Shown here: positions 1-35,647 of the stretch, piece by piece
How positions within the stretch are numbered: position 1 is the stretch's first letter
Layout of the letters: each line of letters opens with the position of its first letter
Source of the DNA: a bacterium
Lineage (GTDB): Bacteria; Patescibacteriota; Minisyncoccia; Phycocordibacterales; UBA5272
Reading direction: 5' to 3'
DNA: 35,647 nt
Assembly: GCA_043736875.1 (NCBI GenBank)
Contig: JAYTBU010000027.1
Span: 1-35,647 of the forward strand
Program-made: the position numbers and the translations under genes
Notes under the pieces: model-generated
The model's input: the letters and a program-made list of their open reading frames with translations, nothing else
What the model was told of the DNA's origin: nothing
Databases searched by the model: none

Positions 1-10
1 TAGCGCGGCC
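1..10 (-). terminator. Partial GC-rich hairpin arm just past the L,D-transpeptidase stop; probable terminator cut by the window edge
   Basis: GCGCGGCC lies at 3-10. Its reverse complement GGCCGCGC resembles the 5' arm of the complete hairpin at 24911-24931. The partner arm would lie outside the window. Confidence 0.3.
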
Positions 11-14
11 ATTT

Positions 15-953
15 TTAAATAAACTGTAACAAATAACTCTTATTACTTTTTATAAAATTATAAAAAAGCACTCTGTCATTTACATTTTCAAAATTAATAT
101 CACTTATACCTATAGCTTGTGATTTTTTTATTCTGTAGTCATTAAAAGCCTTGCCACCTATTTGAGACTCTACCACTTTGACAGCTTCTTCATTTCCATT
201 GATTATGTAGTAGTTCAAGTCTTTGATTCTTATTTTCTCTTTGTTAAAAGTTATTAATTTTTCTTGATTAACTATCTCCAAAGAAACTAGTGAGGTCAGC
301 ATATTTTTACTAGTTTCTGCGCCTATATCTACATTTTCAGATACATTTGTATCTGTTTTTACTATTATTTTTGTACCTATTTTTGAAAAGTCATATATCT
401 CTTTTGCGTCTACGTCATGCATGCGTATACAACCACCACTATATGCCGTCGTTACTCTCTCTCCATTTTTATGATATGGTATACCATGTATAAAAAAATT
501 ACCAAAAAACTGCATAGCGTATGGCATGTATACATTGCCAAGCCCAGAGAGTCTGACATCTTGCTTTGTCGAGACTTCATAACTACCACTAGGAGTCTCG
601 TAGTAACTACCTGGTTTACCTTTTGAGACTATGTCAAAAGTCTTATAATTCTCTCCTTCTTTTAACAGTGTGAGCTTCATACTGGTTAGATCAGCTATTA
701 TTATATCTTCTTGTATTTTTATATCTGAAAACTCTGGATTTATTTGAGGAGTATTTACCAGAATATTTTCTTGAGCATGATTAATAGGTGTCTCATTTAT
801 TTTTATTGGAGGCGCATTATATACAGCTGTTTCTTTTGCTAAAGCAGATGTAACAAGCTTGGATCTGTCCAGACTAACTATCGATGTATACATAATCATA
901 AATCCGAGAGTAAAAGACAGTGTAGGGAGTATTATGTAGTGATATAGATTCAT
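15..953 (-). CDS. L,D-transpeptidase (YkuD domain), membrane anchored
   Basis: 312-aa ORF with an N-terminal hydrophobic anchor (IILPTLSFTLGFMIMYTSIV). The C-terminal signature HGIPYH...YSGGCIRM matches the catalytic His/Cys motif of L,D-transpeptidases. Confidence 0.85.
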   Translation of the reverse strand: MNLYHYIILPTLSFTLGFMIMYTSIVSLDRSKLVTSALAKETAVYNAPPIKINETPINHAQENILVNTPQINPEFSDIKIQEDIIIADLTSMKLTLLKEGENYKTFDIVSKGKPGSYYETPSGSYEVSTKQDVRLSGLGNVYMPYAMQFFGNFFIHGIPYHKNGERVTTAYSGGCIRMHDVDAKEIYDFSKIGTKIIVKTDTNVSENVDIGAETSKNMLTSLVSLEIVNQEKLITFNKEKIRIKDLNYYIINGNEEAVKVVESQIGGKAFNDYRIKKSQAIGISDINFENVNDRVLFYNFIKSNKSYLLQFI

Positions 954-2796: not shown

Positions 2797-4323
2797 GTGT
2801 ATTCATTTAACCTAGATTATATTTTTGATAAAGTTTATGATGTTGTCCTCAGTGTAAAATACTTTTGGTATTTTACTGTACTTGGGTATGATGAAAAGAG
2901 GTACTTGGAAAGTGTTAGCAATGAAGTGTGGGACGGGCTACGTGACAGAGGCTGGTTTGAAAAAGGGTATATTACCTCTGAAGAAAATCGTATAGATAAT
3001 TTTTTGAATATGATTGGTTTTAACACAAAATTAGATACTGACGGTGATGGTGTTCCAAACCTAAAAGACAATAAACCATTAGATACAAATAATTTTACAC
3101 AAGAAAAAACAAAAGAAGTTTTTGGAGCGGATATGAATATGGGTGACAAGATAAAAAGTTTTTTTGGTCTGGATATTTTAGATACAGATAAGGATGGTGT
3201 GCCAGACAGTTATGAGGTTAAGCACAGCATGAATATAAATAAGCCAGACAGTGATGGTGATGGCATACTAGATAGTGAAGAGGTTTTTAAAGGTTTAAGT
3301 CCAATGAATGCAGATCAAGATAGAGATGGTATATTAGACGGACGAGATGCCTACCCTTTGGATATCAATAGAAGTGTGGTAGAGAGTGATGTTGATAGTG
3401 ACGGTGATGGTATTGGAGATAGATTTGAAAACATACTAGGTAGTGACCTAAACAATCCAGATAGTGATGGCGATGGACTGAGTGATGGTGCTGATCAGTA
3501 TATAAATAATAAATTAAATACAGTGCACAGCTTGCAAAGCTTTACAAATGAAGGTGTATTTTCTGGTTTAACTTTTTCTGTACAAAATGACATATTGCGT
3601 TTTCTGTCTGACTTAATCTCACTCTTAACTTTATTTTTACTACCACTTTCTATGTATATTTTTTATAAGTGGTATGTACAAATAGATCATGACATAAAAC
3701 ATTATTATCACCTTTTCCATCATGCATATGGTTACAAGCATCATGATGGTGATGAGGGACACGGTAAAAATAATCATGGAGGAAAAAAGAAAAACTTTTT
3801 AGACAAAGTTTTAGACAAGATATTTGGTGTAGAAAAATACGCAAAGAAGCTAGAGGGTTCAGACAAGAATACTGCGCACAATAAAAACTTTTCAGAGATA
3901 AAAAATAGTATAGATAAAGACAAAGACTTTCATAAAAATACACATACAGAAAGTGCTGAAAACAATACTATACACCATGTTGTGGATCCTGGCATAATCA
4001 GTGTGTCTGTATTAGAAAAAGATAAGAGATGGGAAATAGTAGATAAGTATATGAATGAAAAAGATGAGGTATTCTGGAGGCTAGGTATAATAGAGGCTGA
4101 CAACATACTTGATGACGCTCTTAAAAATAAAGGGTATTCTGGCCAGAACTTGGGAGAGAGGCTGATCAATGCTAATTTTAGAACTATAGACTTGGCTTGG
4201 GATGCCCACAAGATAAGAAATAAAATAGCTCACGCAGGATCAAATTATAACCTGACAGACAGAGAAGCAAGGCGAGCTTATATTATGTTTGAAACTGTTT
4301 TACAGGATCTAAAAGTAATTTAA
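2797..4323 (+). CDS. Membrane protein with six thrombospondin-type-3 (calcium-binding) repeats, a His-rich tract and a C-terminal RNxxxH (HEPN-like) domain
   Basis: GTG start 8 nt after the gatA stop. Six DxDxDGxxDxxD/E repeats are present (DTDGDGVPNLKD, DTDKDGVPDSYE, DSDGDGILDSEE, DQDRDGILDGRD, DSDGDGIGDRFE, DSDGDGLSDGAD). There is one hydrophobic span (LISLLTLFLLPLSMYIFY) and a His-rich tract (HDIKHYYHLFHHAYGYKHHDGDEGHGKNNHGG). The C-terminus reads ...AWDAHKIRNKIAHAG... Confidence 0.6.
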   Translation: MYSFNLDYIFDKVYDVVLSVKYFWYFTVLGYDEKRYLESVSNEVWDGLRDRGWFEKGYITSEENRIDNFLNMIGFNTKLDTDGDGVPNLKDNKPLDTNNFTQEKTKEVFGADMNMGDKIKSFFGLDILDTDKDGVPDSYEVKHSMNINKPDSDGDGILDSEEVFKGLSPMNADQDRDGILDGRDAYPLDINRSVVESDVDSDGDGIGDRFENILGSDLNNPDSDGDGLSDGADQYINNKLNTVHSLQSFTNEGVFSGLTFSVQNDILRFLSDLISLLTLFLLPLSMYIFYKWYVQIDHDIKHYYHLFHHAYGYKHHDGDEGHGKNNHGGKKKNFLDKVLDKIFGVEKYAKKLEGSDKNTAHNKNFSEIKNSIDKDKDFHKNTHTESAENNTIHHVVDPGIISVSVLEKDKRWEIVDKYMNEKDEVFWRLGIIEADNILDDALKNKGYSGQNLGERLINANFRTIDLAWDAHKIRNKIAHAGSNYNLTDREARRAYIMFETVLQDLKVI

Positions 4324-4353
4324 AAGATATTAAAAATAAAATTATATAAAAAT

Positions 4354-4785
4354 ATGCAAGACAAAAATATAAAATCAGAAAAACCAAAATATAATATTAC
4401 TTATGCTAAGCCGAGTAAAATTAATTTTAAAGACTTATTAAAAGTTTCTAGTATCCCAGTTTTTATCGCATCATTGTGTTGTCTGTCTCCTGTTATCTTA
4501 CTGTCACTTGGCCTCGTTACTGTGAGTGTAGCGGGTGAGCTGGCTGATGTATTTTATGGTACTTACAAGTGGGTATTTCGCGGAGTTGGAATGATTGCAC
4601 TCGTAACAGCTTTTGTATTTTACATGAGAAGGCAAGGCATATGTACATTGGATGATGCTAAAAAAAGAAGAAATGAAATAATTAATAAATTACTTTTAAC
4701 TTTAATTATAGGAGTTTCTACTTACTTATTCTTTTTGTATGTTGTGGTACATTATTTGGGTGTCTTTCTAAACATTTGGAAATAA
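4354..4785 (+). CDS. Three-span membrane protein with a CCxxP motif in TM1 (MerT-like architecture)
   Basis: 143 aa. TM1 is [21 protein letters not shown], followed by TM2, a loop with a single Cys ([10 protein letters not shown]), then TM3. The layout parallels the mercuric transporter MerT (recalled from memory). Confidence 0.5.
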
Positions 4786-4810
4786 ATTATTGTATCATTG
4801 TAATATAAGT

Positions 4811-6070
4811 ATGTTAAAACTAAATCTAAATCTAAATCTTAAAAATATTTTAACAATAATTGTATTATCTTTTATCTCTTTTGTGTTGTATAATACATAC
4901 AAGAGATCACATTCACCTCAATACAAAAGAGAAATAAATATGCAACAAGAAATAAATACAAAATTAAATAATGGAGAGTATAAAAAAATCATTTTTGCTG
5001 GAGGGTGTTTTTGGTGCACAGAGGCAGAGTTTAATCATGCTCCTGGTGTAATATCAGCTATATCTGGTTATGCTGACAGTGAGAAAGACAGAGTATATTT
5101 TTCGCCAACTTATGAAGAAGTTAGTTCTGAAAAAGTAAAAGCTCGCGAGGCTGTAGAGATTGTATACGATAAGAATAAAATTTCTATAGGTGACTTATTG
5201 GAAAAGTATTTTAAACATTTTGACCCGTCTGACACTGGAGGATCTTTTGGTGATAGGGGTTACCAATACACTTCTGCTATATATTACACAACAGAAGATC
5301 AGAAAATAAAATCAGAAGCAATAAAAAACAAAATAGAGCTGAGTAAAAAGTTTATAGAAAATAATAGTAAAGTAGCGACAGAGATATTGCCTCTTAATAA
5401 TTTTTACCCAGCCGAGGAGTATCATCAGGACTATAAAGACAAGAACCCAGTTAGATATAATCTGTACCGAGAGGGTAGTGGTAGAAATAGTTTTATAAAA
5501 TTACATTGGCAAGACGGCAGCACTACCACAAAGTCTATTTTCTCTGTAGAAAAAGAAATAAGTAGTATAGATTATAATCAAGATAAAAATATGCAAGAAG
5601 AAAATAAAAAAAATATTAAAAGATGGGAAAATTTTACCATAAAAGATAAAGAAGAAAAACTTAAAACTCTGACATCGGTACAGTATGACGTGACTCAAAA
5701 AGAGGGAACAGAGCGAGCATTTCAAAATGAATATAACGCAAATAAAGAAGCTGGTATATATGTCGACATAGTTTCTGGAGAACCTTTATTTTTATCCATA
5801 GATAAATATGATAGTGGCACTGGCTGGCCCAGCTTTACGAGACCATTAAGTGATTCATCTGTTACTACACATTCAGATAATGGTATATTTGTAAGTAGGA
5901 CAGAAGTTAGGAGTAAAATAGCTGACTCGCATTTGGGCCATGTATTTGAAGATGGTCCAAAAGATATGGGTGGCATGAGGTACTGTATGAATAGTGCTAG
6001 TCTCAGATTTGTAAAGTTAAAAGATATGGAGGTGGAGGGTTACAGTGAGTATATTTCTCTTTTGAGATAA
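4811..6070 (+). CDS. msrAB: Fused peptide methionine sulfoxide reductase MsrA-MsrB with N-terminal membrane anchor
   Basis: MsrA motif [11 protein letters not shown]. MsrB motifs GWPSF and [11 protein letters not shown]. Hydrophobic anchor [15 protein letters not shown]. The ATG at 4811 is preferred over the TTG at 4790 used by the ORF track. Confidence 0.9.
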
Positions 6071-6095
6071 TATATTTTGTATTTTATAAAAAATA

Positions 6096-6104
6096 TGGTA
6101 TAAT
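6096..6104 (+). promoter_or_regulatory. Extended -10 promoter (TGgTATAAT) upstream of the tRNA cluster
   Basis: TG at 6096-6097 and TATAAT at 6099-6104, about 30 nt upstream of the tRNA-like fragment. Confidence 0.5.
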
Positions 6105-6135
6105 GTTTTTTATAGAGCATATCTATGAAAAACAT

Positions 6136-6185
6136 AGCGGAATAGAGTAATGAGGTAACTCAAGAAATATAGACTCATAACCTCG
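6136..6185 (+). pseudogene. Decayed 5' fragment of the tRNA-fMet gene (tandem partial duplication)
   Basis: AGCGGAATAGAGTAaTGAGGTAACTCA...CTCATAACCTCG matches the acceptor 5' strand, D arm, anticodon loop and 3' anticodon-stem strand of the tRNA at 6214-6284. It also shares the upstream flank TGAAAA(A)CAT. The 5' anticodon-stem strand, T arm and 3' acceptor strand are absent. Confidence 0.7.
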
Positions 6186-6213
6186 AGGTTGTATAGTCAA
6201 GCTTTGAAAACAT

Positions 6214-6284
6214 AGCGGAATAGAGTAGAGGTAACTCACGAGGCTCATAACCTCGGGACACTGGTTCGATTCCAGTTTCCGCAA
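6214..6284 (+). tRNA. tRNA-fMet: tRNA-Met (CAT), probably the initiator tRNA-fMet
   Basis: Cloverleaf folded by hand. Acceptor AGCGGAA/TTCCGCA has an A1xA72 mismatch with G2:C71 and C3:G70. D arm is GAGT-AGAGGTA-ACTC (A11:U24). Anticodon arm is CGAGG-CTCATAA-CCTCG. T arm is ACTGG-TTCGATT-CCAGT. Discriminator is A73. No CCA is encoded. Confidence 0.75.
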
Positions 6285-6314
6285 CAAGTAAAACTACGCG
6301 AGCAAAAATTAAAT

Positions 6315-6339
6315 GCCCCGCCAGCGTAGCTGGCGGGGC
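6315..6339 (+). other. GC-rich perfect hairpin between the two CAT tRNAs (processing signal or weak terminator)
   Basis: GCCCCGCCAGC-GTA-GCTGGCGGGGC forms an 11-bp perfect stem with a GTA triloop. The following T run is poor (ATTTATAGAATTT). Confidence 0.5.
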
Positions 6340-6352
6340 ATTTATAGAATTT

Positions 6353-6426
6353 GTCGGTGTAGCTCAGTTGGTTAGAGCATAGCATTCATAAAGCTAAGGT
6401 CGGTGGTTCGATCCCACCCATCGACA
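6353..6426 (+). tRNA. tRNA with CAT anticodon (elongator Met or lysidine-modified Ile2; not resolvable by eye)
   Basis: Acceptor GTCGGTG/CATCGAC (one G-U pair). D arm GCTC-AGTTGGTTA-GAGC (C11:G24, elongator type). Anticodon arm TAGCA-TTCATAA-AGCTA. T arm GGTGG-TTCGATC-CCACC. 74 nt, no CCA encoded. Confidence 0.8.
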
Positions 6427-6452
6427 CAGAGATATGGCACACTTGATTTATC

Positions 6453-6491
6453 TACCTATTTAGTGTATACTAAATAGGTATTTAATTTTTT
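6453..6491 (+). terminator. Rho-independent terminator after the tRNA cluster
   Basis: 12-bp stem TACCTATTTAGT/ACTAAATAGGTA with loop GTAT, followed by TTTAATTTTTT. Confidence 0.6.
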
Positions 6492-6506
6492 AACAGGAGA
6501 AATAAA

Positions 6507-7013
6507 ATGAATCAAGTGATCTTTCTGGCTGGGCTTCCTGCCGTAGGTAAATCAACCTTGGCACAACAAATGGCTAAAAAATATGATGGAAAGGTTTTAG
6601 ATATAGATGACATAAAGAGAAAGTTAAGCGACCCTAATCTTGTAACGTCTTCTATTGATACTCCTGAGATTAGGTGGAGGTGCTACGAAGAAGCTGCTAG
6701 ACAAATCTTTCAATTTTTTAAAAATGGTGAAGATGTCGTTATTGTGGATGAAGTTTTTCACCTAAATGAGCTCAGGGAAAAATTAGAAGCTTTACTTGCG
6801 TCCAATGAAGTAGAAGTTGTGTGGATTCAGGTTGTTTGTTCTTTTGAACAAGTTAAGAAAAGATTGGAAAGTAAGTCTCGTACAGGTCATATTTTGTCAA
6901 CAGATGAAGCTTTGAAAATGTACGTACTTTTTCAGGAAATTTTTGAACCATTCCCCCAAGACAAAAAGAATCATTCAGTTTTCAACAATGATACTAGTTC
7001 ATTAACTGTTTAG
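6507..7013 (+). CDS. Small P-loop NTPase/kinase (AAA_33 or zeta-toxin/polynucleotide-kinase-like fold)
   Basis: 168 aa. Walker A motif is GLPAVGKST and the Walker B-like motif is VVIVDEVF. A strong Shine-Dalgarno sequence (AGGAG) lies 8 nt upstream. The gene is visibly more GC-rich than its neighbours. Confidence 0.6.
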   Translation: MNQVIFLAGLPAVGKSTLAQQMAKKYDGKVLDIDDIKRKLSDPNLVTSSIDTPEIRWRCYEEAARQIFQFFKNGEDVVIVDEVFHLNELREKLEALLASNEVEVVWIQVVCSFEQVKKRLESKSRTGHILSTDEALKMYVLFQEIFEPFPQDKKNHSVFNNDTSSLTV

Positions 7014-7028
7014 TAATCATTTTTAATT

Positions 7029-7062
7029 TGGCTGATGTAATCAAATACTCAGCCATTTTTTT
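7029..7062 (+). terminator. Rho-independent terminator after the kinase gene
   Basis: Stem TGGCTGA/TCAGCCA with inner GTA/TAC pairs, followed by TTTTTTT. Confidence 0.6.
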
Positions 7063-7118
7063 AATATATTTAACGACTTTAAATATAATTTACAATACTA
7101 ATTTTTAATAAAAATCAT

Positions 7119-7868
7119 ATGAATAAAATTTTACATTTACCCACAAAGAGAATAACTAATTCAGAATCTATAGAAAAAGTTAAAATTAACGATTCGTTAA
7201 TGTTAGCAACTGCAATAGGATTAAAAAAAGAAATAAACGAAGACTCCGTCAGTCTTTTTATTGACGGCAATATTACAAGAATATGTATTTCAGATGGTCA
7301 CTGGGGAGAAGAAGCTTCTGATATTATCAATAAGTATTGGATCGATAAAAATTTAATATTCCCTAAAAACTTAATAGAAGCACAAAATGAAACTAATAAG
7401 ATAGAAGATATTCTTTATCAAAAATTTGGTGAAAAAGTTACAGATGAAAATAAAGATTTTACACCAGAATCGAGTTTTATCTGTATAGAAATAGTGGACG
7501 ACAAGGTATCAATAGTTAGCTACGGCGATAGCAGGCTTTTTATAATGGATAAAGAAAATATAAAATTTATTCAAGAGTGTAAGAGTACATGGCTTGGAGT
7601 TTTTTCAAGACTGGGCCTCAGAGGTAGACTATCTGTAAAAGAGGGGGTTGTATTTAATGTAGAAAAGTTAAATCCTGGAGATAGTGTATTTTTATTTACT
7701 GATGGAGTGGATCAGTGTATTTATGAAAAAGATACAATAAGTTTTGATGCTATTGCTAGCTTTTCAAAAAAGTTGAATGTAGAAGATTCTGTTGACACCA
7801 TATTAAAAGAAGTCTTTAATTTTGGTGCCGAAGATAATGCTAGCTTGGTAATTTATAAATATGAGTAG
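7119..7868 (+). CDS. PP2C-family Ser/Thr protein phosphatase-like protein
   Basis: 249 aa. It carries the PP2C motif series ISDGHWGEEAS (DGxGG-like), YGDSRLF, FLFTDGV and a C-terminal AEDNASLVIY (DN-I/V-T-like). Confidence 0.65.
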   Translation: MNKILHLPTKRITNSESIEKVKINDSLMLATAIGLKKEINEDSVSLFIDGNITRICISDGHWGEEASDIINKYWIDKNLIFPKNLIEAQNETNKIEDILYQKFGEKVTDENKDFTPESSFICIEIVDDKVSIVSYGDSRLFIMDKENIKFIQECKSTWLGVFSRLGLRGRLSVKEGVVFNVEKLNPGDSVFLFTDGVDQCIYEKDTISFDAIASFSKKLNVEDSVDTILKEVFNFGAEDNASLVIYKYE

Positions 7869-7918: not shown

Positions 7919-10900
7919 CTATTTTAAATCATTAATCATCTCTACCACAAAAGTTTTTTCGCTATTTCTACTTGCTACTTTACCTTTTATTATGCACACA
8001 GTGTCTAACTTTATTTTATTTTTTATCTTTTCAAAAGTTTTTGGAAAGACTGCCATCTCTATTGCTCCTGTATAGTCACGAGTGTTTATGAGTGCCATCA
8101 TATCACCTTTTTTCGTCTTCATTATTTTTACTTTTTCTATAAGCACAGCAAGGCTACACTCAAACTCATCTGCATAATCATGATGTACTCTGTCTATATT
8201 TATATTTCTATTTATTATCTGTTCTCTCCATGGATCAAGAGGAAAACCAGAGACATACAGTCCCAGCAATTCTTTTTCCCAGTTTAATTTTTGTGTAGCG
8301 GATGCTGCAGCTACTTTTTTTAATTTAAAAGTTGGCGCAGACACACTTTCTCCGAACAGACTCATCTGAGACTCATTATCTTTTATGACATTTTTATGAT
8401 ACTCTAATATGTTTTCTATGTTAAGAATTATCTGATTCCTTTCTTCGAACATGTCTAGAGCCCCGCACATAGCTAGTGCATCCATAGATTTTTTACTAAG
8501 ATTTTTATGTGTAACTCTTTTTAAAAAGTCCTCCAGATTTTTATATTTACCATTTTTATTTCTCTCATTTATAACCGCATCCGCTATGTCCACTCCAAAG
8601 TTTTTAATAGTGTATAATCCAAACCTTATCTCTTCTACCCCTTCTACGTTTTTAACTATTTCAAAGCCGCCGACAGACTCATTGATATCTGGTGGCAGTA
8701 CGGTTATGCCCATGCGTTTACATTCTGCGACTATCTCGGCTATTTTATCAACATCACCGCTCTCATTTGTCATAATCGCTGTCATATAGGCATGAGGGTA
8801 GTGGGCCTTCATATATGCGGTCTGATAAGCGACGCGGCCGTAACTTGCAGCATGAGCTTTGTTAAAACCATACGCTGCAAACGGCTCTATTTGTGTCCAC
8901 AGTTCATCCGCTTTACTTTTGGATAGACCATTTGCGAGAAACCCTTTATAGAGTTTTTCTTTTTGTTCCTCCATTTCCGCAGGGATTTTTTTACCCATAG
9001 CTTTACGCAGCTTGTCAGCCTCTAGCCAGCTGTAACCAGCAAGATGTATAGCAGTTAACATCACGTCATCTTGATAAACTATAACACCGTAGCTCATATC
9101 AAGTATTTCTTTTAGTCTCGGATCTAAAAAAGTAACAAGGTCAGGATTATGTTTTCTTTTTATATATTCTGGTATCATCTCTAGTGGTCCTGGGCGATAC
9201 AGTGCTACCATCGCATTTATGTCGTGTACATTTGTGGGTTTAAGTTCTTTTAAGTATCTTGTCATACCGCTACCATTCAATTGGAAAAGTCCCATGGTCT
9301 CGCCGCGTGACAACATCTCAAAAGTCTCTTTATCATCTTCACTTATCTCTTCTATATCCACATCTATATTATATTTTTCTTTTACTATTTTTATAGCAGT
9401 AGCGAGTATTGATAAGTTTCTAATTCCAAGAAAGTCAAATTTTAAAAGTCCAGCATCCTCGATGGTATACATGTCATATTGTGAGATTAACTTACCTTCA
9501 CCTTTTGGGTCATATTGTATTGGTGTCCACTCGGTCAGGGCAGCAGGAGAGATAACGGTACCAGCAGCGTGTACACCGATATGACGTACGTTACCTTCTA
9601 ATTGTTTTGCCATGTCTAGTATTATGCTTGTGTCTCTGTCTGTATCATACATTTCTTTTAGTTCTGGTACGTCTTTTATAGCACTATCTATGAAAACAGG
9701 AAAGCCTTGTTTTGGTGGTGGTATTAGACGAGATAATTTGTCGCCAACAAGATAAGGAAAGCTCATGGCACGCGCCACATCACGCACGGCACCGCGCGCC
9801 ATCATAGTACCAAAAGTACCGATCTGTGCTACGTGATCAGCTCCATATTTTTTTCTGGCATAATTAATCACGTCGTCACGTCTGTCATCTGCAAAGTCCA
9901 TGTCTATATCTGGCGCTGATGGACGCTCCGGATTTAAAAATCTCTCAAATGGTAACTTATAAACTAAAGGGTCACATTTTGTAATACGAAGCAAATAAGT
10001 CACAAGTGATCCAGCTACTGATCCACGTATATTTGTAAGTACGCCGTTCTCTCTCGAAAAGCGAAGCAAATCATAAACCACCAAAAAGTAAGGTGAGTAA
10101 CCTTTGTTTTTAATTACTTCTAATTCGTAGTCTAACCTTTTCAAAGTCTCTGGAGTTGCCTCTTTTTTTCTATCTTCTAATCCTGCGTATGCCAATTTTT
10201 TCAAGTCCTCATCGTAATTAACTTCAAACTCTATAGCAGGGAAAACCCATTTACCCAGCTCTATTTCAAAATTTATTTGACCAGCTATTTTTTCTGTATT
10301 TATTATCGCCTCAGGTATATCTGAGAAAGCATTTATAAAGTCATCTTTATTTGGAAAAGAAAAATCTGCTTGTGAAAAATGTGTCTTATAATATTCGCTA
10401 GCATCTATCTCACTGTCTATCTGTATAAGTGTCTTGTGGGCCGGCTTATCATTTGCAGATATATAATGTGAGTTTTGAGTAGCGACTAATTGTATATTAT
10501 TTTCTTTCGCAAAGTTTATTGTATTCTCACGCATCTCTCTCCCATAATCCATAAAAGTATGATTGGTTACTTCTAAGTAAAAATCATTATAAAAAATATC
10601 AGTGTATTTTTTTAAGGTATTTTTAGCTTGTATTTTATTTTTATCATCATTTATTTTTAAATGACTGGAAACTTCACCCCAAGGACCACCAGACAGGCAA
10701 AATAAGCCGGTGGTATTTTTGGCGGCAGCTTCGCTGCCGCCACCACTCTCATCTACTTTCAAATTTTCAAAATCCTCAAAAGTTAAAAATGGATTATCAT
10801 TTTTAATGTGCTTTGTATTTGCTACACTTACTAGCTTCATCAAGTTTTTATAACCTATTTCATTTTTAGCAAGTAATACTATTTCAAAAAATCTTTCACC

Positions 10901-11113
10901 GACCTTCACTTGAAGCTCAGCACCAAAAATAGGTTTTATTTTTCTCTTTTGACATTCCTTTTGAAATTCTATAGTACCATACATATTATCTGTATCTGTT
11001 ATAGCTAGATGTGTGTATTCAAAAGATACAGCTTTTTTAATTAGTGTGTCTATTTTAGGTAAAGCTCTCAAGAGAGAGTATTGTGTATGATTTCTTAGTT
11101 GTACCGGATTCAT
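7919..11113 (-). CDS. dnaE: DNA polymerase III alpha subunit
   Basis: 1064 aa counted from the ATG at 11113 (MNPVQLRNHTQYSLL, PHP-domain start). Polymerase core motifs are present, e.g. PDIDMDF and GLLKFDFLG. The TTG at 11140 in the ORF track is probably upstream of the true start. Confidence 0.95.
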   Translation of the reverse strand: MNPVQLRNHTQYSLLRALPKIDTLIKKAVSFEYTHLAITDTDNMYGTIEFQKECQKRKIKPIFGAELQVKVGERFFEIVLLAKNEIGYKNLMKLVSVANTKHIKNDNPFLTFEDFENLKVDESGGGSEAAAKNTTGLFCLSGGPWGEVSSHLKINDDKNKIQAKNTLKKYTDIFYNDFYLEVTNHTFMDYGREMRENTINFAKENNIQLVATQNSHYISANDKPAHKTLIQIDSEIDASEYYKTHFSQADFSFPNKDDFINAFSDIPEAIINTEKIAGQINFEIELGKWVFPAIEFEVNYDEDLKKLAYAGLEDRKKEATPETLKRLDYELEVIKNKGYSPYFLVVYDLLRFSRENGVLTNIRGSVAGSLVTYLLRITKCDPLVYKLPFERFLNPERPSAPDIDMDFADDRRDDVINYARKKYGADHVAQIGTFGTMMARGAVRDVARAMSFPYLVGDKLSRLIPPPKQGFPVFIDSAIKDVPELKEMYDTDRDTSIILDMAKQLEGNVRHIGVHAAGTVISPAALTEWTPIQYDPKGEGKLISQYDMYTIEDAGLLKFDFLGIRNLSILATAIKIVKEKYNIDVDIEEISEDDKETFEMLSRGETMGLFQLNGSGMTRYLKELKPTNVHDINAMVALYRPGPLEMIPEYIKRKHNPDLVTFLDPRLKEILDMSYGVIVYQDDVMLTAIHLAGYSWLEADKLRKAMGKKIPAEMEEQKEKLYKGFLANGLSKSKADELWTQIEPFAAYGFNKAHAASYGRVAYQTAYMKAHYPHAYMTAIMTNESGDVDKIAEIVAECKRMGITVLPPDINESVGGFEIVKNVEGVEEIRFGLYTIKNFGVDIADAVINERNKNGKYKNLEDFLKRVTHKNLSKKSMDALAMCGALDMFEERNQIILNIENILEYHKNVIKDNESQMSLFGESVSAPTFKLKKVAAASATQKLNWEKELLGLYVSGFPLDPWREQIINRNINIDRVHHDYADEFECSLAVLIEKVKIMKTKKGDMMALINTRDYTGAIEMAVFPKTFEKIKNKIKLDTVCIIKGKVASRNSEKTFVVEMINDLK
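10720..10744 (-). repeat. 25-nt GC-rich palindrome inside dnaE, identical to 35623-35647
   Basis: Minus-sense sequence is GGTGGCGGCAGCGAAGCTGCCGCCA, with 10-bp stem TGGCGGCAGC/GCTGCCGCCA and loop GAA. It is translated GGGSEAAA within ...VDESGGGSEAAAKNTTG... Confidence 0.9.
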
Positions 11114-11529: not shown

Positions 11530-12573
11530 ATGTTTGGCTTATTTAAAAAAGTAGAGAAAAGATATATAGGACTTGATCTAGGAGAGTCGAGTATAAAGCT
11601 TGTCGATATATCCAATCTAGAAGACAGACTAATTCTTAATAATTATACAGAATTAGAAATAGGCACATATGCAGGCAGAGAAAATGGTGAGATAGTAAAG
11701 CTTGGAGAAAAAGAGATAACCCAGGCAATAAAAGATATATACACGAGCTCAGAATCATCTTGTAAAAATTTTGTAGTGTCGGTCCCTATGCAATCATGTG
11801 TTATAAAAAGTTTTGACTTACCTATAGAAACTAAAAGTATATTGGACACTATTGTACCATACGAATTTTCAAAAGGGACAATGTTAAAAGCATATGATTT
11901 TAACATTAATTATAACATAGTAGAAGAGACAGACTCTAAGTTGAGCTTACTTGTTGTTGCAATAAAGCAAAAGGATGTAGACAGGATAAATAGTATATTT
12001 GCAGACATAGACCATAATGTTCTGCGAGTAGAACCGAGTATATTTGGACTTTCTAGAAATATAGAAAGATTAAATACTGGAAGTGTCAATATGATTATTG
12101 ATTTTGGCGCCAGTGTAACAAGCGTTCTTTTTGTCAGTGCCAACAAAGTATATATGGCTCAGACTTTTTCAAAAGGTGTAAATCAAATAATCTTAAATAT
12201 TAAAAACAATCTAAGTGTGAGTTTTTTATCAGCAAAGAAATTCTTTTTTGAGTTGGATATTTTAAATGAAAGTAGTCTAGAAGCACAGATATGTAATAGT
12301 TCATTTGCTTCTATTTTAGAAGAAGTTATACACATACAAAATAATTTTTATAATAAATTTTCATTAAAATGTAGTAATATATATATAAGCGGTGGAGGGT
12401 CAAAAATAAATAATATTGAAAGTATGATAAAGCAGTTTTTCCCGCTCATGCAAGTCTCAAAAATAAATGGATTTGAGAGATTATTTTTACCAGAAACTTT
12501 AAAGGAGACAACTTTTAAACATGGTGGAACATTTAACAATGCGATAGGAGTTACATTATCAGAAATAGAATAA
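11530..12573 (+). CDS. pilM: Type IV pilus assembly protein PilM (actin-like ATPase fold)
   Basis: 347 aa. N-terminal IGLDLGESSIKLV motif. First gene of the pilMNO-pilBTC operon. Confidence 0.85.
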   Translation: MFGLFKKVEKRYIGLDLGESSIKLVDISNLEDRLILNNYTELEIGTYAGRENGEIVKLGEKEITQAIKDIYTSSESSCKNFVVSVPMQSCVIKSFDLPIETKSILDTIVPYEFSKGTMLKAYDFNINYNIVEETDSKLSLLVVAIKQKDVDRINSIFADIDHNVLRVEPSIFGLSRNIERLNTGSVNMIIDFGASVTSVLFVSANKVYMAQTFSKGVNQIILNIKNNLSVSFLSAKKFFFELDILNESSLEAQICNSSFASILEEVIHIQNNFYNKFSLKCSNIYISGGGSKINNIESMIKQFFPLMQVSKINGFERLFLPETLKETTFKHGGTFNNAIGVTLSEIE

Positions 12574-12577
12574 ATAT

Positions 12578-13369
12578 ATGCCACCTTTCAGAAAAAATAA
12601 TAATTTTATAACAAATAAAACAGAAGAGCTGTTACCGTCTGATCCTTTTAGACCTATTGCTATTCTGGTATTTACTTTTTCTATACTTATTTCTATCTCG
12701 GTGTATGGGGGGCTTTATTATTTTGAAGCTAAAAATAAAGCTTTAGAAGATGGGGTAAAGTCACTAGAGGTTGAAATAGCTAAAATGCCACTGAAAGAAA
12801 TGGTTCAGATGTACAACAAGATCACAAACATAAACACTATTCTTTCTACAAGAAATAATGTGCTGCTGGTTCTTAATTTGCTGGCTGACTCTGTAGAAGA
12901 TGGAGTTTATTTTGAAAAGATGGACATAGTTACAAAAGAAAAATATGCTGAAATGTCTATTTTTGGAGTTACAAATAGTTATGAAAATATAGTAAAACAA
13001 ATAGATAGTATGAAAAGAGAGTCAGAATCATATAAGAGTCTGATTAAAAAAGTTACACTAAAGTCAGTCTCATCTGACAAAGATAATAATATAAAATTTT
13101 TATTATCTGTAGAAATAGACATGGTAAATAAAAATCAGTTTATGATAGAATCTAAAAAATATGACCCTACATACCAGAGTCCTTCTAGTGTAGAGATTAA
13201 TTTTGGGGGTCTAAATATCAGTACCAGTACCACCTCTACTTTTATACAAAGCTCTACGTCTTCTATAGCAACCACCACCTCAAGCTCTACTGTAGAAATA
13301 AAACCTGCACCAGACACAAAAACCACCCCAACAGAAACAGTCAAGGTAATTAAAATTAAAACAACCTAG
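12578..13369 (+). CDS. pilN: PilN-like bitopic pilus assembly protein with Ser/Thr-rich C-terminal tail
   Basis: 263 aa with an N-terminal TM span (IAILVFTFSILISISVYGGLYYF) followed by a coiled segment. It follows pilM. The tail reads STSTTSTFIQSSTSSIATTTSSSTVEIKPAPDTKTTPTE. Confidence 0.65.
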   Translation: MPPFRKNNNFITNKTEELLPSDPFRPIAILVFTFSILISISVYGGLYYFEAKNKALEDGVKSLEVEIAKMPLKEMVQMYNKITNINTILSTRNNVLLVLNLLADSVEDGVYFEKMDIVTKEKYAEMSIFGVTNSYENIVKQIDSMKRESESYKSLIKKVTLKSVSSDKDNNIKFLLSVEIDMVNKNQFMIESKKYDPTYQSPSSVEINFGGLNISTSTTSTFIQSSTSSIATTTSSSTVEIKPAPDTKTTPTETVKVIKIKTT

Positions 13370-13372
13370 AAT

Positions 13373-13951
13373 ATGAAACAATATATATTAACCATATCAC
13401 TATTTACAATATCTACGATACTGGTATTTTGTATTGTTATGCCACTGTATAATGGTTCTGGATATAGTGTTATACCGATGTCAAATCTAATACAAAAATA
13501 TACTGAAAATAAAAAATTAAAAGAAGCTTTACTGATTTCTCAGGATTTATTTTCAAATAGTGAAGAAAATGTGCGAGGCTTTTATTCTATAGATGATGAA
13601 TATAAAAGAAAATTAGACTTGGCGGTCCCAGCGGTAAAAGATATACCAAGAACTCTTAATAATATAAATGTACTTGCTTATGAAAACTCAATAGAGCTTT
13701 CCGATTTCAAGTTTTCTAAAAATATAAATGATGTAAAAAAGAAAGACTATATTACTTACGACGTTTCTTTTTCTTTGATTGGTAGATACGATAATTTTCT
13801 TAATTTTATATCTAAAATAGAAAAGAGTTTAGAAATATACAACATAAAAAGTATCTCTATAGCTACAGCTGATAACAAAGAACAGTCATATGGAACTATG
13901 AAATACGTAATTTCTCTGGAATCTTTTGAGATTAAAAATAATATTAAATAA
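13373..13951 (+). CDS. pilO: PilO-like bitopic pilus assembly protein
   Basis: 192 aa with an N-terminal TM span. The call rests on its position after the pilN-like gene and its size, both typical of PilO. Confidence 0.55.
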   Translation: MKQYILTISLFTISTILVFCIVMPLYNGSGYSVIPMSNLIQKYTENKKLKEALLISQDLFSNSEENVRGFYSIDDEYKRKLDLAVPAVKDIPRTLNNINVLAYENSIELSDFKFSKNINDVKKKDYITYDVSFSLIGRYDNFLNFISKIEKSLEIYNIKSISIATADNKEQSYGTMKYVISLESFEIKNNIK

Positions 13952-13963
13952 AATAATAAACAT

Positions 13964-14263
13964 ATGAATAAAATACAACTAAAACAAGAAAACATAAAGT
14001 ATATATACGGACTATTTTTTATGGTACTGTTATCTTTTTTTGCATACGTTGCTTATGATATTTTATACAGAGAACATCAGACAGAAGAAGTACTTTTGTT
14101 ATCGTCTGATACATTTAGAATAGTTCAGGATTTTAAAAATAAAGGTGTAAGTTTTCTAAATATAGAAAACCTAATAAATGGGACCTTCTCTTATCTGGAA
14201 AATATAAATAAAGACGTATTGCCTTTTACTGAAAAGGGCAGATTTAACCCTTTTGAAAGATAA
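13964..14263 (+). CDS. Small bitopic membrane protein of the pilus operon (possible PilP-like role)
   Basis: 99 aa with TM span YGLFFMVLLSFFAYVAY. The C-terminal GRFNPF resembles the R-D/N-P-F motif recalled from PilP-type proteins. Confidence 0.45.
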   Translation: MNKIQLKQENIKYIYGLFFMVLLSFFAYVAYDILYREHQTEEVLLLSSDTFRIVQDFKNKGVSFLNIENLINGTFSYLENINKDVLPFTEKGRFNPFER

Positions 14264-14264
14264 T

Positions 14265-15989
14265 ATGATAATATTAACCGAACTTTTAAAAAGAAATATA
14301 TTATCTGAGCTGCAGGTAAGAGACATAAGTAACAAATTAGATGCGGGAGATGTTTTAACTGTTGATGATGCTTTTAAAGTTTTTAATGTGCAAGCTAGTG
14401 TAGTAAAGCAAGTCAGGTCTGAGATTTTCGCTTTACCAACTTTTGATACTGTAATAAAATTAGACACTAATAATATAAATTATCTAGATCAGAGCATGGC
14501 TAGAAAATATAAGATATTGCCACTTAATTTTTCTGATAATACACTAAGTGTTGGTCTGGTTGACCCAGAAAATCAAGACACTATATCTGTTATAGAAAAT
14601 TCAACCATTAAAAATGGTATCAAATACAAACTTTTTTTAATATCTCAAGATCAGTTTGAGGCAGGTCTGATTGAGTATTTTAATGCAAGTGTAGAAGAAG
14701 AGTCTGCAAAATCATTGGTTTTGGGAGATGTAAATAGTAGTGTCGGAGACTTGGATAAAAAAGAGGCAACAGACATAACCAAATTTGACCAAGATTTATC
14801 TAAAAATATAACAGACGATAGTGTAGATACAATAGTAAACACTCTTATAAATCAAGCTTTAAAGCAAGATGTAAGTGATATACATATAGAGCATCTGGGA
14901 GACAGTCTTCGGGTTAGGTACAGGATAGACGGAGTGTTAGAGAAGAAATTAGAGTTACCACCGAGCATGCACTCATCATTAATAGCAAAAGTTAAAATAC
15001 TTTCTGATATGAAGCTTGATGAAAAAAGAAAGCCACAAGATGGACGTTTTTCTGTCAGGATAGAAGGTCATAAGGTAGATTTTCGTGTGTCATCTATGCC
15101 AGGATACTATGGTGAGAAAGTGGTTATACGTATTTTAGATAGTTATAGAGGTATAAGAAAGCTTGAAAATATGGGTTTTAGTGAGCTGCATTTAAAGCAA
15201 ATTAGAAATGCTCTGCAGAGACCTTATGGTATGATACTCATAAGTGGTCCGACAGGATCTGGAAAAACCACCACTTTATACTCAATGATAAATGAAATAG
15301 ACAGAGATAAAAGAAATGTTGTATCATTAGAAGACCCAATAGAATACAATGTGTCAGGCATGAATCAGTCACAGATATTCCCAGAGATAGGTTATAACTT
15401 TTCTACTGGATTACGCTCTATATTACGTCAAGATCCTGACGTCATTATGGTTGGAGAAATACGTGACGCAGAGACGGCTCAGCTAGCTGTGCAAGCAGCA
15501 CTGACAGGACACTTAGTTTTTTCTACTATACACACCAATAATAGTGTTGGAGTTATAACTAGATTAATAGATATGGGTGTAGATCCATTTTTGATAGCAC
15601 CTACGCTTTGTCTTTCTATAGCACAACGTCTGGTTCCTCAAATATATCCAAAATGTGAAGCTCCTCTTGAAATGGGTGAAGGTTTAAAAGCTATGATAAA
15701 AAAAGAATTTGAAGAATTGCCGGAAAGCTTTAGAGAGAAATTAGATTTGGATAGGCCTGTGTATCAAGCTCTGCCAAATGAAATAGCACCATCAGGAACA
15801 AAAGGTCGCGTACCAGTTTTGGAGATACTAGAAATTGATGATGATATACAAAATGCTATAGTTACTAAAAAATCAGAAGATGATTTGTGGAAAATAGCAA
15901 AGACAAAAGGTATGATAACCATGAAGCAAGATGCTATCATAAAATCTATGAATAAAATAGTTCCATTTGTGGAAATCGCCGGCTTGTAA
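14265..15989 (+). CDS. pilB: Type IV pilus extension ATPase PilB (GspE family)
   Basis: 574 aa counted from the ATG at 14265. Walker A motif is GPTGSGKTTT, plus VGEIRD and FSTIHTN boxes and an N-terminal T2SSE_N-like region. Confidence 0.9.
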   Translation: MIILTELLKRNILSELQVRDISNKLDAGDVLTVDDAFKVFNVQASVVKQVRSEIFALPTFDTVIKLDTNNINYLDQSMARKYKILPLNFSDNTLSVGLVDPENQDTISVIENSTIKNGIKYKLFLISQDQFEAGLIEYFNASVEEESAKSLVLGDVNSSVGDLDKKEATDITKFDQDLSKNITDDSVDTIVNTLINQALKQDVSDIHIEHLGDSLRVRYRIDGVLEKKLELPPSMHSSLIAKVKILSDMKLDEKRKPQDGRFSVRIEGHKVDFRVSSMPGYYGEKVVIRILDSYRGIRKLENMGFSELHLKQIRNALQRPYGMILISGPTGSGKTTTLYSMINEIDRDKRNVVSLEDPIEYNVSGMNQSQIFPEIGYNFSTGLRSILRQDPDVIMVGEIRDAETAQLAVQAALTGHLVFSTIHTNNSVGVITRLIDMGVDPFLIAPTLCLSIAQRLVPQIYPKCEAPLEMGEGLKAMIKKEFEELPESFREKLDLDRPVYQALPNEIAPSGTKGRVPVLEILEIDDDIQNAIVTKKSEDDLWKIAKTKGMITMKQDAIIKSMNKIVPFVEIAGL

Positions 15990-16004
15990 TTTGTAAAAAT
16001 GTAG

Positions 16005-16010
16005 TATAAT
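16005..16010 (+). promoter_or_regulatory. Internal -10 box (TATAAT) with leaderless spacing to pilT
   Basis: TATAAT at 16005-16010, then exactly 6 nt to the ATG at 16017. Confidence 0.45.
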
Positions 16011-16016
16011 GTATCT

Positions 16017-17087
16017 ATGCAAGAAAAATATTTATCTAACGACTTACTTAATAATCTAATACTAACTCTGGTAAAAGAAGACGGTTCTGACATACACTTG
16101 GTTGCGGATATGAGTCCAGCAGTGCGTATACATGGTGAACTTATACCCATAACAAAAGTTTCCAAGTTAGAATCTTCTGAAATAGTTGAAATACTGAGGC
16201 TCATAATAACTCCAGAGCAGTATGAAAAGTATTTGAGTGATCAGCAAGTGGACTTTTCTTACACTCATTCAGGTGAGTACAGACTAAGAGGGCATGCCTT
16301 TGTTCAAAAAGGGAAAACTAGTTTAGTGCTTAGGCTTGTACCAAAAATAAAAGAGATTAATGACCTTAACTTACCAAAAGAGTTATTGGATGTGTGCAAG
16401 CTAAAACAAGGCTTCTTTTTGGTGGTGGGCCCAGTAGGACAAGGAAAGTCAACTACGCTTGCTAGTATGATTAATTACATTAACACAAATGATAAAAAAA
16501 TAATCTCTACCATAGAGGACCCTATAGAATATATACACGAATCAAAAAATAGCTATATAACACAAAGAGAAATAGGTACAGATACAAAAAGTTTCCCAGC
16601 AGCTCTGGAGGCAACTTTTAGACAAGATGTAGACGTCATACTTTTAGGAGAAATGCGTGACGCAGATACTATACGCACTGCCGTAACTGCTGCTGAGACT
16701 GGGCATTTAGTGTTTTCTACTTTACATACTAACTCTGCTTCACAGACGATAGACAGAGTTATAGATTCTTTCCCCTCTAATCAGCAAGATCAGATACGCT
16801 CACAACTAGCTTCTTCTTTGGTTGGAGTATTTTCACAGAGACTGCTACCAAAGATTGGTGGCGGACTCATGCCTATATATGAGCTATTAATGGTTAATAG
16901 TGCAGTACAGAACCTGATCAGAGAGAAAAGATCTTATGAGATAGATAATATAATAGAGACTGGCGCACATTCTGGCATGATTAGTTTTGACAGATGTCTA
17001 GCTGCTGCTGTTGTTAGAGGTGATGTACCGATAGACGAAGCTATATTGCACGCTAAAAACAAAGACATGTTTCAAGACTTAATATAA
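16017..17087 (+). CDS. pilT: Twitching-motility (retraction) ATPase PilT
   Basis: 356 aa. Walker A motif is GPVGQGKSTT, plus LGEMRD and GHLVFSTLHTNSA. The size is typical of PilT. Confidence 0.9.
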   Translation: MQEKYLSNDLLNNLILTLVKEDGSDIHLVADMSPAVRIHGELIPITKVSKLESSEIVEILRLIITPEQYEKYLSDQQVDFSYTHSGEYRLRGHAFVQKGKTSLVLRLVPKIKEINDLNLPKELLDVCKLKQGFFLVVGPVGQGKSTTLASMINYINTNDKKIISTIEDPIEYIHESKNSYITQREIGTDTKSFPAALEATFRQDVDVILLGEMRDADTIRTAVTAAETGHLVFSTLHTNSASQTIDRVIDSFPSNQQDQIRSQLASSLVGVFSQRLLPKIGGGLMPIYELLMVNSAVQNLIREKRSYEIDNIIETGAHSGMISFDRCLAAAVVRGDVPIDEAILHAKNKDMFQDLI

Positions 17088-17112
17088 AAAATTAAACATA
17101 AATACTATCAAT

Positions 17113-21572: not shown

Positions 21573-21617
21573 TATATTTATTTTAGATAAAGTGTGGTAT
21601 CATAAAATCATGAAATT
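21573..21617 (+). repeat. 45-bp direct repeat, copy 1 (decayed copy of the pseudouridine-synthase promoter and start)
   Basis: TATATTTATTTTAGATAAAGTGTGGTATcATAAAATCATGAAATT is identical to 22181-22225 except C/A at 21601/22209. That change turns TATAAT into TATCAT. Confidence 0.9.
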
Positions 21618-24906: not shown

Positions 24907-24934
24907 AAAAGGCCGCGACGAAGTCGCGGCCTTT
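24907..24934. terminator. Bidirectional GC-rich terminator hairpin between convergent cysS and the M23 peptidase gene
   Basis: AAAA-GGCCGCGAC-GAA-GTCGCGGCC-TTT forms a 9-bp perfect GC stem with a GAA triloop. Confidence 0.75.
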
Positions 24935-31587: not shown

Positions 31588-31605
31588 CAGCAAAAAACTC
31601 AAATA

Positions 31606-35382: not shown

Positions 35383-35647
35383 ATGACAAATTACGGATTA
35401 AAAATAAATAGTAAATACAACATAACTGACTACTCAGAAAAAGTTATGACTAGCGCAGGAGATATAGTGTTATTTGAATCTGGTATATATAAAATATATT
35501 GTGACGGGGATACTTTTATTTCTCATAATATATTTGAAGGATTAATACATATAACATGTATTAGTGTGCGTGATGATATATCTATAAATATTAGAGCTAG
35601 TGGTGTGGCTGGTGAAGTGTGCGGTGGCGGCAGCGAAGCTGCCGCCA
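35383..35647 (+). CDS. Open-ended ORF (5' part only), unknown function; absent from the supplied ORF track
   Basis: Translated by hand: MTNYGLKINSKYNITDYSEKVMTSAGDIVLFESGIYKIYCDGDTFISHNIFEGLIHITCISVRDDISINIRASGVAGEVCGGGSEAAA... with no stop before the window end. A TGcTATACT box (35361-35369) lies 13 nt upstream. Confidence 0.5.
   Translation, partial: MTNYGLKINSKYNITDYSEKVMTSAGDIVLFESGIYKIYCDGDTFISHNIFEGLIHITCISVRDDISINIRASGVAGEVCGGGSEAAA
35623..35647 (+). repeat. Second copy of the 25-nt GC-rich palindrome, ending exactly at the window edge
   Basis: GGTGGCGGCAGCGAAGCTGCCGCCA is identical to the reverse complement of 10720-10744 and is in the same reading phase (GGGSEAAA). Confidence 0.9.

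Follow-up and report, generated by a model that had tools for sequence, protein, structure and literature searches.

The 35,647-bp contig JAYTBU010000027.1 (hereafter the window, which is the entire contig; 32.5% G+C), from a genome of the Paceibacteria within the candidate phyla radiation (CPR), carries two identical copies of a GC-rich palindromic 25-mer, GGTGGCGGCAGCGAAGCTGCCGCCA, one inside dnaE and the other inside a gene of the SufD/SufB family. We consider it roughly an even chance (probability about 0.5) that this 25-mer is a copy of a very small codon-phased palindromic repeat element which is tolerated in protein loops and has been copied within the genome; the mobility of such an element and its genome-wide copy number we infer. 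This reading is based on two identical copies in unrelated genes of one genome while orthologous copies elsewhere are different, as well as on sister sequences that differ in having the hairpin, a stem shared by two host clades, an insertion hot spot in DnaE and multi-copy palindrome families in relatives.

The 25-mer is present exactly twice in the window and the same two matches are the only ones obtained when up to three mismatches are allowed, with 0 matches in 100 dinucleotide-preserving shuffles, which agrees with the statement in the preliminary description of this DNA that such an exact repeat is not expected by chance. Its composition and folding were also as described there: 19 of the 25 bases are G or C (76%, against the 32.5% of the window) and they form a perfect 10-bp stem around a GAA loop, with a free energy of -20.4 kcal/mol as RNA (z -4.8) and -13.8 kcal/mol as DNA (z -6.5), both far below the values for shuffled sequences. 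The window search and the reading frames likewise confirmed that both copies lie on the sense strand of their genes and in the same phase, being read GGT GGC GGC AGC GAA GCT GCC GCC and translated GGGSEAAA. Since GGC, GCC and AGC are minority codons in this genome (15% of Gly, 9% of Ala and 10% of Ser codons, respectively), a peptide of this sequence would be encoded by exactly this series of codons with a probability of 2.4e-6, meaning that it is the nucleotide sequence that is shared and not the peptide. On the 5' side the identity of the two copies ends with the 25-mer (GAGAGT in one, GTGTGC in the other), and the contig end prevents comparison on the 3' side, so that 25 nt is a minimum for the length of the repeat. 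As a unit, however, the 25-mer of the preliminary description is better described as a 21-nt, seven-codon codon palindrome, the rule common to all carriers being three codons, a loop codon and three reverse-complement codons.

In dnaE, the best homologues of which come from Paceibacteria, Nomurabacteria and Parcubacteria metagenome-assembled genomes (MAGs; CPR/Patescibacteria), the 25-mer falls in a PHP-domain segment absent from E. coli Pol III alpha, whose structures (4JOM, 2HNH) are without the 15 residues ENLKVDESGGGSEAA, a PHP-domain insertion in the window DnaE. Among the closest DnaE orthologues the stretch from FEDF to GL(I/F)CLSGGPWGE differs widely in length, and compared with the closest of all (P0002, 83% identity) the window protein has seven additional residues after an LKxD anchor (LKVD in the window), at a site where the P0002 DNA is AT-rich and the 25-mer is not present. 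Seventeen GC-rich perfect palindromes were found across 81 aligned DnaE orthologues: all seven from AT-rich genomes (one in the window, four in L005 and one each in L035 and L066) are located in low-occupancy insertion columns, those with occupancy <0.3 holding just 1.9% of residues, and the remaining 10, which are in conserved columns of genomes of 43-54% G+C, look like chance. As far as these alignments go, the dnaE copy is a lineage-specific insertion, a possibility raised in the preliminary description, and lies in a hot-spot surface loop. Its flanks, GAGAGTGG and AAAAATAC, contain no direct repeat and no target-site duplication.

The same dnaE sub-site is occupied in two other loci, L004 and L005, by one GC-rich palindromic element, GGAAGGTGCCRAAGGCGGAAGG, which is found in opposite orientations and is translated in frame in both, and in a third, L095 (about 4690-4730), by what was judged by eye to be a decayed copy of it. 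This element, located at 4850-4920 in L004 and at 4250-4410 in L005, where it has AACCCCTTC/GAAGGGGTT-like ends, may resemble a miniature inverted-repeat transposable element (MITE) of about 35-150 nt. A second variable dnaE site of L005 (6524-6579) holds two more in-frame GC palindromes, CTCCCTCTC-CAAAA-GAGAGGGAG and CCTCCCC-TTGAG-GGGGAGG. Gene calling splits the dnaE of this locus in two (3880-4152 and 4152-7316), which hints at a frameshift or a sequencing error.

The gene hosting the second copy is truncated by the contig end, and a word-index protein search with the 88-aa terminal open reading frame (ORF) gave no match; an exhaustive HMMER search showed it to be the N-terminus of SufD/SufB-family proteins (PF01458) of ~200 aa, the genes for which usually adjoin sufB and sufS. 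A GC-rich hairpin that matches the window copy in site and codon phase, between the conserved blocks I-N-I-x-x-x-G and (V/C)SD(V/I)YH, is also carried by six related SufD-like genes, which come from independent assemblies (JGI 3300046361, several ENA ERZ and two NCBI GCA assemblies). Five of these hairpins are perfect and one (L093) has a single mismatch, and the 3-nt loop is always a codon. More distant SufD-like homologues have no insert at this site. The relatives' peptides differ (HGSEAAV, GGAEGAT, RGGEAAA, GASSAGA, IGGGEAAAK), palindromic DNA logic being their only common feature.

When these hairpins were aligned with that of the window (seven sequences only, the alignment being anchored on the loop by ourselves), 7 of the 11 stem pairs were found to be changed on both sides, and 90.9% of cells were paired compared with 76.8% in shuffles, none of 500 shuffles reaching the observed pairing or covariation score; slid controls gave 23-62% pairing. 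A survey of 80 dnaE loci yielded no SufD-like genes with which this set could be enlarged. All carriers with perfect stems fold with -16.7 to -25.8 kcal/mol, and there is no G-T/G-U wobble within the perfect stems, the only U-G cell being found where most stems have already ended, in the outermost column of the alignment. The loop and its two closing pairs read GCGAAGC in the window hairpin and in four of the related ones (L088, L089, L092 and L093), and d(GCGAAGC) is a DNA mini-hairpin with exceptional thermal and nuclease stability as single-stranded DNA (PMC13037366). The lack of wobble pairs within stems, together with this core, points to a palindrome at the DNA level. On a tree of the host genes the hairpin has a patchy distribution: stem CACGGCAGC is found in two host clades, and there are sister pairs of which one member has the hairpin and the other does not (P0132/P0136 and P0139/P0140). 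In an AlphaFold (AF2) model of the SufD-like homologue P0121 (mean predicted local confidence, pLDDT, 84.8) the residues HGSEAA form a turn between two beta-helix strands and coincide with a local dip in confidence. Each host site is thus a loop, and a Gly/Ser/Glu/Ala insert should do no harm there.

In-frame palindromes, of which no description for CPR/Patescibacteria was found in the literature, are not confined to these two genes. The perfect palindrome TCCGCCAGCTGGCGGA is present in six copies in 13.9 kb of L066 and in two copies in the 23 kb of L035, occupying the same dnaE site in both, and all copies within long ORFs, on either strand, read PPAGG. Another family, CCTGCC..GGCAGG, occurs in three AT-rich genomes (L023, L029 and L044), where it is read LPAGRQ or LPAQAG, and CGGAAGC-AAG-GCTTCCG is in frame in L023 and L035, in the former as a sub-hairpin of a 46-nt perfect palindrome; the positions of these further families are 1024 and 8480-8525 in L023, 4218 in L029, 156 in L044 and 17017 in L035. 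A repeated palindrome of L031 was rejected, being intergenic. Throughout 1.45 Mb of Paceibacteria loci, GC-rich perfect hairpins number 100 versus 15 mirror-repeat controls.

The PPAGG palindrome belongs to two different Paceibacteria MAGs (positions 3242, 8604, 8661, 8720, 9060 and 11906 of L066; 3220 and 12536 of L035) and with its neighbouring bases, (A)TCCGCCAGCTGGCGGA(T), constitutes a 16-18-nt perfect palindrome with a CAGCTG core; its density is reminiscent of highly iterated palindromes or of uptake sequences. For this palindrome a role as a DNA-uptake sequence is possible. The same role was considered for the window element in view of the type IV pilus genes of the window, and was set aside, as there are only two copies and the stems differ between relatives. 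These pilus genes form a complete-looking type IV pilus or competence-type cluster (11530-18321: PilM, PilN, PilO, PilB-like and PilT-like ATPases, PilC) that adjoins dnaE; such a cluster is typical for CPR bacteria and is relevant if the palindromes are considered as uptake signals.

Database searches with the exact 23-mer core gave no match in 185,579 GTDB representative genomes or in IMG/VR (the source genome is outside both) and three matches in a metagenome scan, all of them unrelated intergenic hairpins in GC-richer contexts, hence there is no evidence for a widespread identical element. Look-ups of the exact window DnaE product likewise brought up no second assembly of the same population. 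No Rfam family matches the 25-mer site, with only four tRNAs of the window reaching the gathering score, and a Pfam scan of 30 window ORFs revealed no transposase, no RAYT (the Y1/HUH transposase associated with repetitive extragenic palindromes, REPs), no homing endonuclease and no other nuclease. As regards MITE features, the whole unit is one hairpin, and neither a target-site duplication nor a related insertion sequence is found in the window.

If the 25-mer is such an element, its core would be the 21-nt GC-rich codon palindrome, made up of three arm codons, a GAA loop codon and three reverse-complement codons, and forming a 9-11-bp perfect hairpin centred on d(GCGAAGC). The hairpin would be resident at one permissive turn of the SufD-like Fe-S assembly protein in this Paceibacteria lineage; in the window genome the DnaE PHP domain would have received, in a permissive surface loop, an identical copy derived either from the SufD-like copy or from another genomic copy. 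With arms composed of GGC, GCC, AGC and GCT and the loop in phase, ribosomes would translate through it to give a harmless, linker-like Gly/Ser-Glu-Ala peptide. GC-rich sequence contains no stop codons, and an insert that is free of stops, in phase, a multiple of three in length and, with its small residues, harmless as a peptide would survive purifying selection in loops. We assume a copying process that operates on DNA and in which the hairpin is recognised or used, for instance transposition in trans through a hairpin-binding enzyme, or template switching or gene conversion between hairpins, and the same process would keep the copies within a genome identical while orthologous copies elsewhere differ.

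A number of observations weigh against this reading. There are only two copies in 35.6 kb of this genome, no target-site duplication is visible in the dnaE flanks, and none of the enzymes that might move the element (transposase, RAYT or homing endonuclease) is encoded in the window. Among hosts sharing only ~54% identity, and against the AT bias, the SufD-like hairpin has kept its perfect pairing and a G+C content of nearly 100%; the persistence of such stems suggests that either the structure is selected or re-insertion is continual. No two of the terminator-like hairpins between genes of this genome are alike, and hence there is no general homogenisation of hairpins. Finally, a single ancient gain and later precise deletions mediated by the hairpin could also account for the patchy distribution.

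Terminators and recoding signals can be set apart from the 25-mer. An intrinsic (Rho-independent) terminator was rejected, as the GC stem-loop is there and a U-tract is absent on both strands: the stem is followed by AAAAATACC on the sense strand and by CCACTCTC on the antisense strand, neither of which is U-rich, and a terminator scan reports the intergenic hairpin between the two tRNA-Met genes (Table 1) and not the 25-mer site. A frameshift or recoding signal was likewise rejected, as no slippery heptamer is found 5' of the stem. In these genomes, hairpins located between genes are built like the coding ones (9-12 GC pairs, a GAA or GTA loop), with A/T-tract flanks and mutually different sequences, and are ordinary bidirectional terminators. 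The one reported by the scan separates two tRNA-Met (CAT) genes (6214-6427) and shares the architecture of the coding hairpin, with a different sequence; in its inner stem, CGCCAGC..GCTGGCG, it is similar to the L094 SufD-like hairpin and to the core of the PPAGG palindrome.

The strongest alternative, a serious rival although we think it less likely than the element reading, is that the SufD-like gene contains a selected cis-acting hairpin, formed by RNA or by single-stranded DNA, instead of a selfish repeat. Predicted roles of such a hairpin include a determinant of mRNA processing or stability, a transcription or translation pause site and the binding site of a hairpin-recognising protein, and the dnaE copy would then either serve the same trans-acting factor as a second site or go back to a one-off duplication. 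The compensatory double changes in the stem and a degree of pairing reached by no shuffle argue for it, as do stems that are GC-rich against both the AT bias and the codon usage of the genome, the strong folds of the perfect-stem carriers, and a position and codon phase identical in all SufD-like carriers. However, the hairpin is not an intrinsic terminator and is patchy even among close SufD-like relatives, the dnaE copy is missing from the 83%-identical orthologue, which is hard to square with an essential function, and the missing G-U pairs are atypical for selection at the RNA level. A function specific to one gene would also leave unexplained the general pattern, i.e., unrelated in-frame palindromes in many genes of related genomes. 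The two readings are not mutually exclusive, and a conserved SufD-like hairpin with compensatory stems is equally compatible with a selected nucleic-acid structure. An improbable third explanation is neutral origin in place, in which quasi-palindromes in fast-evolving loops are perfected by intrastrand template switching (quasipalindrome correction) and the identical copies are due to a single ectopic template switch or micro gene conversion, involving neither an element family nor a function. Template switching would give the strictly Watson-Crick stems and the changes that always affect both arms, and both sites are hypervariable loops. It does not preserve G+C, though: with mutation biased to AT the arms should drift towards AT, yet all carriers are GC-rich, and the recurrence of identical palindromes at many non-orthologous ORF sites of related genomes, always in one frame, is not accounted for.

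Two further explanations are far less probable. The preliminary description had named an assembly artefact as the competing explanation, and the terminal 25 nt or the dnaE insert could in principle be a chimera generated at a hairpin during assembly or library preparation (by fold-back, a template switch or a de Bruijn graph tangle), seeing that one copy stops exactly at the contig end and is the reverse complement of internal sequence, and that the opposite contig end is also half a GC hairpin. Nevertheless, six independent assemblies have a GC hairpin at exactly this SufD-like site and in this phase, which makes it very unlikely that the terminal copy is an artefact; in dnaE, the 25-mer keeps to the frame of an uninterrupted ORF, at a position already known as a hot spot for insertions. 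GC hairpins coincide with both ends of the contig (Table 1), and assemblies of an AT-rich genome probably break at such hairpins through poor coverage or poor assembly there, which is a simpler explanation of the contig breaks; a chimera is accordingly very improbable. The last alternative, protein-level convergence or an engineered linker, in which the peptide and not the DNA is what matters, is effectively refuted. GGGS and EAAAK are both well known from synthetic linkers, GGGSEAAAK looks like a combination of a flexible and a rigid one, and both sites are loops. Against this, the choice of rare codons is identical in both copies, relatives have variant peptides, and the context is that of an ordinary environmental CPR chromosome.

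Table 1. Positions in the window of the 25-mer, its host genes and other GC hairpins, with the equivalent hairpins of related SufD-like genes.
Feature	Position	Strand	Sequence or remark
dnaE	7919..11113	-	DNA polymerase III alpha, 1064 aa (P0001); host of copy 1
DnaE hypervariable insertion hot spot	10700..10765 (approximate)	-	FEDF to GLFCLSGGPWGE, residues about 117-138
25-mer, copy 1, in dnaE	10720..10744	-	G124-A131 (GGGSEAAA) and first base of K132; + strand reads TGGCGGCAGCTTCGCTGCCGCCACC, reverse complement of GGTGGCGGCAGCGAAGCTGCCGCCA
Hairpin proper of copy 1	10720-10742	-	TGGCGGCAGC-GAA-GCTGCCGCCA (sense strand)
SufD/SufB-family gene (SUFBD_core)	35383..35647	+	5' part, 88 codons, cut by contig end; host of copy 2
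25-mer, copy 2, in SufD-like ORF	35623..35647	+	final 25 bases of contig; GGGSEAAA, same sense orientation and codon phase
Contig start	1..16	.	TAGCGCGGCC ATTTTT; apparent 3' arm of GC hairpin, then T-run
Intergenic hairpin	6310..6344	.	TAAATGCCCCGCCAGC-GTA-GCTGGCGGGGCATTTA; perfect 16-bp GC stem, GTA loop, A/T-tract flanks, terminator-like
Intergenic hairpin	24908..24934	.	AAAGGCCGCGAC-GAA-GTCGCGGCCTTT; perfect GC hairpin between convergent genes, bidirectional terminator-like
SufD-like hairpin, L088 (JGI)			TTGGCGGCGGC-GAA-GCCGCCGCCAA
SufD-like hairpin, L089/L090 (ENA)			CACGGCAGC-GAA-GCTGCCGTG
SufD-like hairpin, L091 (NCBI)			TGGGTGGCGCC-GAA-GGCGCCACCCA
SufD-like hairpin, L092 (ENA)			ACGCGGCGGC-GAA-GCCGCCGCGT
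SufD-like hairpin, L093 (ENA)			CACGGCAGC-GAA-GCCGCCGTG (one mismatch)
SufD-like hairpin, L094 (NCBI)			TGGCGCCAGC-TCT-GCTGGCGCCA

The gene content of the window is that of an ordinary chromosomal segment, including GatCA, MsrAB, tRNAs, type IV pilus genes, CysRS, a MurA-like protein and a major facilitator superfamily (MFS) transporter. The first 16 bases resemble the 3' arm of a terminator hairpin followed by its T-tract and are located downstream of a YkuD-family gene (18-953, minus strand). Two other repeats were observed. A 45-nt direct repeat (21573-21617 and 22181-22225, 98% identical), containing an extended -10-like motif (TGGTATCAT / TGGTATAAT) and an ATG, brackets a 608-bp unit beside tRNA-Asn with an ORF for a 160-aa 2H-phosphoesterase or Acb1-like protein (anti-CBASS-like, i.e., directed against cyclic-oligonucleotide-based antiphage signalling; 21712-22194), and this unit looks like a small inserted gene cassette that brought with it a duplication of the promoter and start of the pseudouridine synthase gene downstream. 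The 3' half of tRNA-Ile (31515-31588) is partly repeated just downstream of the gene (31540-31578 versus 31597-31635, 74% identity), the kind of remnant expected from integration at a tRNA gene.

CPR/Patescibacteria genomes are usually described as tiny, AT-rich and poor in repeats and mobile DNA. If seven-codon hairpins do propagate in essential genes, then these minimal cells possess some mobile-DNA or hairpin-directed repair activity, and the hairpins would be a simple source of the loop insertions that drive variation in protein length, in this case in DnaE and the Fe-S assembly machinery. In practical terms, MAG contigs would break at hairpins of this type, as this contig does at both ends, and the inserts may be mistaken for chimeras or synthetic linkers. 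Whether or not it is mobile, a perfect hairpin that lies inside a coding region, is supported by covariation and is conserved in several lineages can be tested directly as a candidate cis-acting element.

Of the proposal made in the preliminary description, that this is a palindromic element of the kind known from Rickettsia or from mitochondrial GC clusters, the part concerning a real, in-frame palindrome stands, while the SufD-like copy is not a fresh random insertion and mobility is deduced from two copies. Rickettsia palindromic elements (RPEs) are in-frame palindromic repeats in unrelated housekeeping genes of a reduced, AT-rich bacterial genome, adding extra peptides at places tolerated by the fold (PMC10969869). 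The window element is similar in being in frame, in unrelated housekeeping ORFs and at structurally permissive sites. It differs in its size, 21-25 nt and seven codons as opposed to about 100-150 bp with family-specific conserved peptides and tens of copies per genome, and also in being a simple perfect hairpin of a CPR bacterium with two copies in 35.6 kb; the comparison is one of descriptions, no sequence relationship being expected. The mobile GC clusters of yeast mitochondria (e.g., GC42) are short GC-rich hairpins in an AT-rich genome, which show presence/absence polymorphism and have stems that are more conserved than their loops, and they are grouped with other organellar hairpin elements, namely double-hairpin elements, repetitive hairpin-forming elements and the 'byps' of Magnusiomyces (PMC4478555). 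The window 25-mer shares their contrast in base composition and their distribution, in that the dnaE orthologue with 83% identity lacks it and only some SufD-like genes have such a hairpin. GC42, however, is 42 nt long, mostly intergenic and accompanied by an AG target-site duplication, whereas the window element is intragenic, codon-phased and bacterial, without such a duplication in the dnaE flanks. Unlike byps, the window insert is open and a multiple of three, and no translational bypass is needed.

Terminator-like hairpins can themselves be repeat elements, as illustrated by SPRITE (listed in PMC10969869). Closer in size are REPs and REPINs, short GC-rich palindromes of about 20-40 nt with species-specific sequences, which an enzyme that recognises hairpins is presumed to move in trans. 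The definition of a REP includes an extragenic location, an imperfect palindrome and a conserved 5' tetranucleotide. Both window copies, unlike the REP/REPIN-RAYT systems and SPRITE, are inside ORFs and have no U-tract, and neither a RAYT nor a Y1 transposase is found in the window. The highly iterated palindrome HIP1 and the small dispersed repeats (SDRs) of cyanobacteria are very short palindromic or repeat units that are also found in coding sequence, where their frames encode benign residues. HIP1 comprises 8-10 nt and recurs about once per kb, compared with a 23-nt stem-loop found twice in 35.6 kb, and it is the PPAGG palindrome of L066 and L035 that bears the closest resemblance to repeats of this type. 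As for d(GCGAAGC), it is a physico-chemical motif and not a genetic element, and in the window it is the core of a longer 9-11-bp stem inside genes.

In conclusion, the window element works most like RPEs and also resembles mitochondrial GC clusters, though it fails defining features of each of the systems considered: the length of RPEs, the target duplication and intergenic habit of GC clusters, the extragenic location of REPs and the U-tract of terminators. As a tentative generalisation, to which we give less than even odds, Paceibacteria may harbour an undescribed class of codon-phased 15-25-nt mini-palindromes, which would spread and persist in genes as cassettes of 5-7 codons (GG[G/S]EAAA, PPAGG, LPAGRQ, GSKAS and others) and be kept GC-rich, perfectly paired and, within a genome, concerted by a DNA process that recognises hairpins. 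If this is true, the class would be the bacterial counterpart of mitochondrial GC clusters and would comprise the smallest known elements that remodel essential proteins such as DnaE.

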